This document shows positions 564 through 1,441 of a DNA stretch of 58,045 bases, in pieces. This stretch comes from a virus (taxonomy: Duplodnaviria > Caudoviricetes), in the IMG/VR virus record IMGVR_UViG_3300048839_001287, positions 1 through 58,045 of that record. The stretch is one strand, 5' to 3'. The first letter of the stretch is position 1; every line of letters begins with the position of its first letter. A program made the position numbers and the translations under genes. The notes beneath the pieces were generated by a model that saw only the letters and a list, made by a program, of their open reading frames with translations, did not search any database and was not told the origin of the DNA.

Positions 564-639
564 CAGTGTTTCGGCCTCATAGTTCAAGGGATAGAACCGC
601 GGTCTTTAAGCTATAATAGGAGCACATAGTTAGTAATAA

Positions 640-1161
640 TTATGTGAATTCTGGCTGTTCAGGAAAGTCTAAAAATAACAAGCCATGGTCAAATTCCCAG
701 TGGCAATTTCTGCATAACTGAATTATGTTATTGCGAGCATTTGCTTCGCCTACCGTTTGGTCTTCAGAAAATGAAGATAGTGGTTTTATATGACATAATT
801 CTACATGCTTGTCATAACCACAGTTTGCACATGGGAGCTTTATTAAATCCTTGTATTTGCTTCTTGCAAGTCCTCGGATATGAGCATTTTTACTGGAAGT
901 GTGAAGATTAGTTAAACATTTTCTGTTCCAGTATTCTTTTAAAGGAAGAGTTTGAAAATAATCATAACGAGTTTCTGTATATTCTTTATGGTGTTTTTCA
1001 CATAATGTGTGTCGGTAACTCTTTACTGGTTTACCACATTTAGTGCAAGTTTTCTTAGTTTTCCTTTTAGGATAAAGCTTATTCGTAACAATTGCAGCAC
1101 AAGAACTAGAACAAAACTTTGGATTGTTTGTCTCTTTGTTGCAGTTAATACAGTTATTCAT
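640..1161 (-). CDS. Intron-encoded HNH homing endonuclease, antisense to the intron
   Basis: CANCG...ELCHIKP...NARNNIIQLCRNCHWEFD HNH/zinc motif plus N-terminal Cys clusters (CINC...FCSSSC; CTKC...LCEKH). Confidence 0.85.
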   Translation of the reverse strand: MNNCINCNKETNNPKFCSSSCAAIVTNKLYPKRKTKKTCTKCGKPVKSYRHTLCEKHHKEYTETRYDYFQTLPLKEYWNRKCLTNLHTSSKNAHIRGLARSKYKDLIKLPCANCGYDKHVELCHIKPLSSFSEDQTVGEANARNNIIQLCRNCHWEFDHGLLFLDFPEQPEFT

Positions 1162-1257
1162 GATAATCGTGAGCTTATTTATTTAATAAATGAGTGCAGA
1201 GACTGTACGCCAGACACCCCACCATATAAAATGAGGGTGAAGAGACAGTCCAGACCA

Positions 1258-1266
1258 CAAATATAC
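1258..1266 (-). promoter_or_regulatory. Candidate Bacteroidota -7 promoter box (TAnnTTTG) for the HNH gene
   Basis: Minus strand GTATATTTG about 95 nt upstream of the HNH ATG, with the same context as the box at 54242-54250. The motif is short and can occur by chance. Confidence 0.45.
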
Positions 1267-1441
1267 ACAAAATAATCGAACAACGAGGTTTTATTTTAAT
1301 ATAAGTTAAAGTTCGAGTGTATAGCGATGAAAATCGTAGTCGGTAAGCTAAACCGCTAATTCCAGTTCGAGTCTGGATGGGGCTACTAATAAAAAATAAA
1401 AAAGAATTTTATACCTTTCTAAAGCTTTAAGAAGCCCTGCA

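Follow-up and report, generated by a model that had tools for sequence, protein, structure and literature searches.

What interrupts the only tRNA-Arg(UCU) gene that could be found in an uncultivated AT-rich phage, and could the interrupted gene still supply a tRNA? The DNA analysed here (the window) is the whole of IMG/VR virus record IMGVR_UViG_3300048839_001287, 58,045 bases long and ~58% complete. Between 573 bp and 1386 bp on the + strand it encodes tRNA-Arg(UCU) in two halves that are separated by 741 nucleotides. We read the intervening DNA as a mobile group I intron of the bacterial tRNA anticodon-loop type, inserted in the phage's only known tRNA-Arg(UCU) gene and carrying a homing endonuclease gene of the HNH type in antisense orientation, and put the probability of this reading at roughly 0.78.

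ARAGORN in intron mode placed tRNA-Arg(tct) at 573 bp–1386 bp with a 741-nt intron at position 34/35, and this was the sole intron-containing tRNA call on both strands of the 58,045 bases. An earlier note on this DNA had proposed the same split gene, and the exon ends (606 and 1348) agreed with the call. The 5′ exon (573..606, + strand; ARAGORN) encodes the 5′ strand of the acceptor stem, the D arm, the 5′ strand of the anticodon stem and C32, U33 and U34. The 3′ exon (1348..1386, + strand; ARAGORN) starts with C35, U36, A37 and A38 and continues with the 3′ strand of the anticodon stem, a 4-nt variable loop, the T arm and the 3′ strand of the acceptor stem, followed by the discriminator base A1385 and then C1386. 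The intron (607..1347, + strand) lies between U34 and C35 and ends with G1347, as judged from ARAGORN, the covariance models and the fold described below. The splice junction cannot slide: U is both the last base of the 5′ exon and the first of the intron, the last base of the intron is G, and the first of the 3′ exon is C. When the exons were joined by coordinates, default ARAGORN called a normal 73-nt tRNA-Arg(tct) whose anticodon loop was 7 nt long and read UCU, which is what the earlier note had required of the junction. It had also anticipated that ordinary scanners would overlook the gene; default ARAGORN and Rfam at its gathering score reported only tRNA-Met(cat) (491 bp–564 bp) and tRNA-Leu(taa) (2214 bp–2298 bp) in the window, and both were blank at 573 bp–1386 bp. 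A20 and C35 are presumably the Arg identity elements of this tRNA, the A20 assignment depending on the numbering of an 8-nt D loop.

Contigs from DNA run X1 matched the window at 633 bp–783 bp (3 differences), 787 bp–937 bp (0 differences) and 1265 bp–1394 bp (1 difference), the last of these bridging the 3′ splice junction; as X1 is possibly the window's own sample, it was not counted as independent support. None of the runs listed for 400 bp–1600 bp was of RNA, and no joint skipping 607 bp–1347 bp was found in three DNA runs, the contigs of which were short, of low depth and silent on an intron-less allele. Analysis of 28 large open reading frames (ORFs) of the phage revealed AGA to be its main Arg codon (350/649, 54%), and ARAGORN in intron mode found no second tRNA-Arg on either strand of the record. 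For these two reasons the phage would be expected to keep the splicing of this tRNA working.

The view of the intron as a complete group I ribozyme, taken in the earlier note, held in our model, although that note had missed a gene that fills ~70% of the intron. This gene (640..1161, − strand, opposite to the tRNA) is located in the P5 loop and encodes an HNH endonuclease of 173 amino acids. The protein scored 31.5 bits with Pfam PF13391 (HNH_2), for which the cut-off is 21 (E = 1.6e-7), and also matched PHROG 1271 (HNH endonuclease), whereas a PDB sequence search gave no meaningful match. An alignment of 14 members showed 28 invariant residues, all of which are retained in the window protein (28/28), including two N-terminal Cys clusters, Cys pairs, His124, Asn141/145 and His154. 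Judged by these residues, the gene is intact, with all catalytic and zinc-binding positions kept. Its start codon is in the internal loop of P5 and its last ~13 codons are antisense to P5, P4 and P3, extending into P2. On two viral contigs that share this architecture (L010 and L023, see below) the HNH stop codon was, by our reading, likewise in or beside the 5′ strands of P4 and P5.

Apart from the HNH gene, no gene on the minus strand of the first 23 kb of the window has family support; because of its strand, the HNH gene would need a minus-strand promoter of its own. A TAnnTTTG motif, which we take to be the Bacteroidota −7 consensus, is present at 1258 bp–1265 bp (−) at the base of P9a and 97 nt upstream of the start codon of the HNH gene. 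This motif might serve as the HNH promoter but is a weak lead, as the window contains 81 copies of it. Sigma-70-type sites were overall fewer in the window than in shuffled sequence. The genes of the window in general lack a Shine-Dalgarno sequence and are AT-rich upstream of their start codons, so the missing Shine-Dalgarno sequence of the HNH gene is uninformative.

The helices of the intron were placed by reading the sequence, and all are on the + strand. The 5′ segment of the ribozyme (604..679, P1 to the 5′ strands of P5) was identified by sequence reading, the minimum free energy (MFE) fold and a 10-bit match to R1, a covariance model that is described below. It contains P1 (604–607 with 619–622), in which U606.G620 is at the splice site, P2 (623–632/637–646) with a GUAA loop, J3/4 (656–657) and the 5′ strands of P3 (650–655/1209–1214), P4 (658–663/1168–1173, with one G.G mismatch) and P5 (667–669/1162–1164 and 674–679/1153–1158). 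The 3′ segment (1153..1347, 3′ strands of P5 to G1347) was identified by R1, the Rfam core alignment, the fold and the pair check, and contains P6 (1174–1181/1187–1194), P7 (1199 and 1201–1205/1246–1251, with A1200 bulged), P8 (1215–1219/1235–1239 plus 1223–1225/1231–1233), J8/7 (1240–1245), P9 (1254–1258/1339–1344), an extra 62-nt hairpin designated P9a (1262–1323), P9b (1324–1337) with a GAAA loop, and the terminal G (1347). P10 is formed by three pairs between the 3′ exon and the intron (1348–1350 with 617–619). Each of the elements named in the earlier note (P1, P10, P2, P3, P4, P7, P8 and the terminal G) was thereby located, and P5, P6 and P9 were added to them.

All of the modelled pairs (79/79) were canonical. 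As is characteristic of group I introns, the U at the end of the 5′ exon is paired with a G in P1 (U606.G620) and the intron ends with G1347; the core comprises P3 to P8, in which P3 and P7 form the pseudoknot and P7 has a bulged base, together with the strands J6/7 and J8/7. On this model the intron is a structurally complete group I ribozyme from P1 to P10 and is predicted to splice; we take its subgroup to be IC3. An unconstrained MFE fold of the ORF-deleted RNA, from which the P5 loop had been removed by coordinates, recovered fully P2 (10 pairs), P3 (6), P4 (5), P5 (3), P5a (6), P8 (8), P9a (7), P9a2 (6) and P9b (5), as well as seven of the eight pairs of P6 and the anticodon stem of the tRNA. 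P1, P7 and P9 were absent from this fold, P7 because it forms a pseudoknot with P3. The MFE was −75.9 kcal/mol compared to −52.6 ± 4.7 kcal/mol for 200 dinucleotide shuffles (z = −4.9).

The model R1 was trained on 42 phage tRNA introns that lack an ORF, with the window left out. Within this family 94.9% of the cells were paired, compared to 31–43% when the partner was slid by 1–3 columns, and 31 of the 49 pairs had changed on both sides; 0/500 shuffles reached the observed values. That the 42 phage introns form a family of real structured RNA is well supported. R1 matched the window between 1101 bp and 1355 bp (43.3 bits, E = 2.6e-11); the posterior was high from ~1165 bp (P4′) through the terminal G and into the exon, and the J6/7-P7 and J8/7-P7′ core strands matched the family consensus. 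The introns of L010 and L023 scored 106.4 bits and 83.5 bits respectively.

Relatives of the intron were gathered with one exact 14-nt core motif of the window, so the counts that follow describe samples and not whole collections. The earlier note had considered Arg(UCU) an unusual site for a group I intron. This view did not survive, as the same junction (exon ...CUU / intron ... G / CUAA... exon) was present in at least 17 other tRNA-Arg(UCU) genes, of which 6 were viral and 11 bacterial, and introns in this tRNA have been reported in Beggiatoaceae (PMC4853749). The viral contigs L010 and L023 had the same architecture as the window, namely tRNA-Arg(UCU) with an intron at 34/35 and an antisense HNH gene, and ORF-less introns at 34/35 were found in L095, L144, L148 and L152 among the viral matches listed. 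L010, L023 and L186 had been labelled Ser(gct) by ARAGORN; they were re-read as Arg(UCU) because a one-base shift of the junction gives both a UCU loop and an intron that ends with G. The 11 bacterial introns came from 120 matches listed, ten being called Arg(tct) by ARAGORN and one re-read, and their hosts include Woeseiaceae, Candidatus Thiodiazotropha, Arenicellales, Chromatiales, Nitrospiraceae and a Neobacillus. They were either ORF-less or encoded a sense PD-(D/E)XK gene elsewhere in the intron (L253 and L222); that of L253 (951 bp–1373 bp, −) matched PF11645 with an E-value of 2.2e-38. By these family matches, the Arg(UCU) site hosts two unrelated families of endonuclease, HNH and PD-(D/E)XK.

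The 18 Arg(UCU) introns were compared by anchored extraction, two mis-anchored entries, L010 at the 3′ strand of P4 and L095 at the P7 partner, being disregarded. A full-length MAFFT alignment was not used, as the ORF inserts had put the 5′ halves out of register. P3 was complementary at 6/6 positions in 17 of the 18 introns, with many different sequences, that of the window being unique. At the outermost P7 pair the window has G-C, where the other introns have A-U or U-A. P9 had one extra base in the window and in six bacterial loci, and the P9a hairpin was absent from L010 and L023.

The 14-nt core motif was present in at least 121 viral loci (L056–L176), and in 65 of the 121 listed it was inside an intron-containing tRNA call. 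Leu(taa) accounted for 24 of these calls, Tyr(ata) for 7, Arg(tct) for 6 and Phe(gaa) for 5, the rest including Met/Ile(cat) and Asn(gtt), although some of the anticodon calls, for example Tyr(ata) and SeC(tca), look like miscalls. A further uncertainty is that 41 of the 121 had flanks of ~300 nt, which possibly hide more intron-containing tRNAs. Leu(taa) was the commonest host among the matches listed (24/121 viral and 28/120 bacterial loci), and Arg(CCT) and Met/Ile(CAT) hosts also occurred in the samples. Screening of 20 long tRNA introns for ORFs revealed an antisense HNH gene in L010, L023 and L115, a sense HNH gene in L086 and, weakly, in L090, and the sense PD-(D/E)XK gene in the bacterial L253. 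From these sequences, phage tRNA genes seem often to hold group I introns, which default scanners overlook. Two intron calls were rejected as false: that of L027 had no covariance-model match, and that of L052 (1930 bp–2327 bp, −, called tRNA-Tyr) is a transfer-messenger RNA (RF00023, 100.3 bits) in a dense viral tRNA array.

Relatives of the HNH protein came from a search of viral contigs with this one protein, and the counts again describe the sample only. At least 54 viral loci hold a relative, and tRNA genes were present in 47 of the 54 listed. A tRNA was within 200 nt of the HNH gene in 32 of these 54 loci and the nearest one was Arg(tct) in 13 of the 32, whereas Arg(tct) made up only 21 of the 280 tRNAs (7.5%) in the loci listed. 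An uninterrupted Arg(tct) gene was within 200 nt of the HNH relative in 17 of the 54. The closest relatives by protein identity among the matches listed (L002, 65%; L003, 59%; L008, 52%) each lie on the strand opposite to an intact tRNA-Arg(UCU) gene and adjoin its 3′ end, and the HNH proteins of the two contigs built like the window showed 61% and 45% identity to that of the window. A third arrangement was seen in L036–L038, where an HNH relative (3001 bp–3498 bp, +) is 46 nt from an ORF-less intron (3545 bp–3751 bp, −). This intron scored 120.5 bits with R1 and splits a CAU tRNA directly after the anticodon, and ARAGORN was blank there even in intron mode. Among the loci listed, tRNA-Arg(UCU) of unrelated phages was uninterrupted beside an HNH gene in 17, carried an ORF-less intron in 4, and carried an intron with HNH in 3 including the window. 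As free-standing, beside-intron and inside-intron arrangements can be seen as a series, a free-standing HNH gene would have invaded an ORF-less intron; the sequences suggest that the HNH family first targeted tRNA-Arg(UCU) from outside and entered the intron later. Viral arrays with an HNH relative also contained tRNAs with the anticodon tta, which would read UAA, in L032 (2514 bp–2596 bp) and L035 (1627 bp–1700 bp), and these may be suppressor tRNAs.

The searches made found no close relative of the phage. Beyond tRNA-Met, the window had no DNA-level match in INPHARED, and the exact 5′ exon was absent from viral_contigs and metagenome_contigs. The nearest DNA polymerase relatives were 30% identical in viral_contigs (L177, a locus without tRNAs) and 38% identical, as a fragment, in metagenome_contigs. 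A tblastn search with 11 neighbouring ORFs of the window against all loci found nothing.

Several observations weigh against the reading of the element as an active, mobile intron. The Rfam group I model RF00028 gave the window 17.5 bits (E = 0.086), below the gathering cut-off of 50 bits that serves as the group I threshold; it aligned the core strands correctly and misplaced the 5′ half inside the ORF, and a search of the whole record with it gave no match. The refuting outcome named in the earlier note, a lack of any covariance-model match, was reached only in part: RF00028 fell short of its threshold on the window and exceeded it on homologous introns (L023, 54.1 bits across its ORF insert; the ORF-less L017, 56.5 bits). 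R1 also misplaced the 5′ half of the window because of the ~470-nt insert; the true 5′ half (599 bp–681 bp) alone scored 10 bits in an alignment that included P1 and P2. The 43.3 bits obtained with R1 are in part built in and hence circular, since the training loci of the model were gathered with the 14-nt motif of the window. In the structure, J3/4 is UG rather than the AAA of the closest phage relatives (bacterial Arg(UCU) introns have UGU), P4 contains the G.G mismatch and the CCUAAG/UAUGG motif is absent from P8. By our reading of its sequence L010 has the same P4 mismatch, the anchored table confirming it for the window only as the L010 row was mis-anchored. No conclusion was drawn on an L2/P8 tertiary contact, as the motif test was crude and both the L2 loops and the P8 motifs are highly diverse among the 42 introns of the family. 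At ~58% completeness, a further tRNA-Arg may lie in the remainder of the genome. The HNH gene has no convincing promoter, a sigma-70-type scan being blank on the minus strand nearby. Finally, the searches turned up no allele without the intron from this phage lineage, and for this reason homing is put forward by inference.

Most of these structural points would also fit an intron that has decayed and lost its ribozyme activity, in which case tRNA-Arg would be a pseudogene and the phage would rely on the tRNA-Arg of its host. The low Rfam score, the altered J3/4, the P4 mismatch, the missing P8 receptor motif and the 62-nt extra hairpin in P9 are what such decay might leave behind; however, all 79 modelled pairs are canonical and the fold is favoured (z = −4.9), and the P4 mismatch is, on our reading, shared by L010, which scores 106 bits with R1. 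The variability of L2 and P8 across the 42-member family likewise lessens the weight of the missing P8 motif. P3 has a sequence of its own and is yet perfectly complementary, which would not survive decay, the J6/7-P7 and J8/7-P7′ strands match the family consensus, the exons form an undamaged cloverleaf and AGA is the main Arg codon of the phage. We consider decay unlikely.

It is very unlikely, in our judgement, that the ribozyme is active and the HNH protein is not its homing enzyme, having arrived by chance, having another target or being inactive. Such a view could draw on the free-standing state of the relatives in 51 of the 54 other loci listed, on the other nearest tRNAs (Met(cat) in 5 loci, Ile(tat) in 5 and Leu(taa) in 3 of those listed) and on the opposite strand of the gene, which means that it is not expressed from the intron transcript. 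It does not account well for the recurrence of this HNH family at one and the same loop of the intron across three diverged contigs (61% and 45% identity to the window protein), nor for Arg(tct) being nearest in 13 of 32 loci listed when its share of the tRNAs is 7.5%, and all of the catalytic and zinc-binding positions are kept. An artefact, either two phage variants joined by mistake in assembly or an intron that ARAGORN called by chance, is barely credible even for a metagenome-assembled record without a close relative and a program mode that gave false calls in L027 and L052, as the intron boundaries agree with group I rules and with the covariance-model alignments, the same junction is present in 17 other genes listed, and contigs of run X1, possibly from the same sample, match at 633 bp–783 bp, 787 bp–937 bp and 1265 bp–1394 bp with 3, 0 and 1 differences.

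Elsewhere in the window, 12,496 bp–21,468 bp (+) and 27,964 bp–37,566 bp (−) hold a cluster of glutamine amidotransferase, COOH-NH2 ligase and amidoligase genes and a 3200-amino-acid virion protein with an RNase H-like part. A second R1 match at 24,652 bp–24,848 bp (−; 20.5 bits, rough E = 1.5e-4) is a probable false positive, as it is located in an uninterrupted ORF of 1335 amino acids (23,957 bp–27,964 bp) and has no Rfam group I support.

Group I introns in the anticodon loops of bacterial tRNAs are classical. The tRNA-Leu(UAA) intron of cyanobacteria and plastids follows U34, its P1 pairs the exon CUU with GAG and the anticodon stem holds the exons together; its classical examples are not known to contain an ORF. 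The window intron shares the insertion after U34 and the CUU/GAG P1 and is in a different tRNA. The introns of Azoarcus tRNA-Ile(CAU) and Agrobacterium tRNA-Arg(CCU), reportedly described by Reinhold-Hurek and Shub in 1992, are small and of the same structural class but differ in where they are inserted and in their guide sequence, and are not known to carry an endonuclease gene. The Synechocystis tRNA-fMet intron does carry its own homing endonuclease, which is aimed at the anticodon region. That enzyme is not known to be of the HNH type and is encoded in the sense direction in a bacterial host, whereas the HNH gene of the window is antisense and in a phage. Among phage enzymes, I-HmuI is an HNH endonuclease from an intron in a protein gene, and SegB is a GIY-YIG enzyme that is not known to be encoded inside an intron.

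Group I introns in tRNA-Arg(UCU) have been described in Beggiatoa and Thiomargarita (PMC4853749). The bacterial tRNA-Arg(UCU) introns have the same host tRNA, insertion point, core (including the P7 strands) and P9 closure as the window intron, and differ in being bacterial, in being ORF-less or having a sense PD-(D/E)XK gene elsewhere, and in J3/4, which is UGU or similar. I-PfoP3I is a nicking HNH endonuclease of a phage group I intron in a protein gene (PMC3428280). The introns of I-PfoP3I and I-HmuI have the HNH gene in a loop, as in the window, but are in protein-coding genes and encode the endonuclease on the sense strand. A review of 2014 states that all phage introns seen until then were in protein-coding genes, despite the many tRNA genes of phages (PMC3984707). 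SegB of T4 and T6 is described as a free-standing homing endonuclease in a phage tRNA cluster (PMC13096335); most relatives of the window HNH are similarly among phage tRNAs (47/54 loci listed). Antisense homing endonuclease genes are known from group I introns in nuclear ribosomal DNA (PMC9548176), and these are eukaryotic, encode His-Cys box enzymes and contain spliceosomal introns. Phage tRNA introns were noted in Lak megaphages in 2018 as 'enigmatic', none having been reported before, and as missed by bacterial scanner settings (10.1101/356790); in the text accessible to us they are small and of unassigned type, with one reported to encode what may be a tRNA. In 2017 a tRNA of an N4-like phage was reported as split by ~2.5 kb on the basis of ARAGORN alone (PMC5746245). 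No account of a group I intron in a phage tRNA gene was found in the full-text literature, a search that left out most subscription journals and is not proof of absence. The Arg(UCU) site is thus recurrent and not new, and it is the phage setting and the antisense endonuclease that are less familiar.

For a mobile group I intron with an antisense homing HNH, the following course can be proposed, in which we infer the splicing steps from established group I chemistry and the targeting by HNH from analogy and the neighbourhood statistics. The tRNA cluster would be transcribed on the + strand and the intron would fold while the anticodon stem holds the exons together. Free guanosine would then attack after U606, and the freed 3′-OH of U606 would attack after G1347, ligating the exons to tRNA-Arg(UCU), which would read AGA, the main Arg codon of the phage. 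The HNH gene would be transcribed separately from the minus strand. Its product would cut or nick the intron-less tRNA-Arg(UCU) gene of co-infecting phages near the anticodon, and repair would copy the intron with the HNH gene into the cut tRNA gene, which is homing.

The HNH mRNA is perfectly complementary to the P5 loop and its ends overlap the P2–P5 strands (640 bp–679 bp) and the 3′ strand of P5 (1153 bp–1161 bp). Because of this complementarity, transcription of HNH would collide with that of the tRNA and would yield an RNA able to unfold the ribozyme. A bolder idea, which we regard as unlikely, is that the antisense layout is a control device by which the supply of tRNA-Arg(UCU) is timed against the production of the endonuclease, or else that this is an HNH family that shuttles within tRNA arrays. 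If the former were true, the phage or the selfish element would be timing tRNA-Arg(UCU), the reader of 54% of the Arg codons. If the broader version were true, phage tRNA arrays would be a large and overlooked arena in which HNH genes pass between the free-standing and the intron-borne state, and would show steps in the assembly of mobile introns.

Returning to the reading of the element as a mobile intron with an antisense HNH gene, the antisense placement raises the question of how HNH is expressed and whether its expression interferes with splicing. The occurrence of one HNH family free-standing, beside an intron and inside an intron offers a testable series for the union of an endonuclease with a ribozyme. 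For phages more widely, tRNA inventories obtained with default scanners would undercount the tRNAs, biasing analyses of codon usage and host adaptation.

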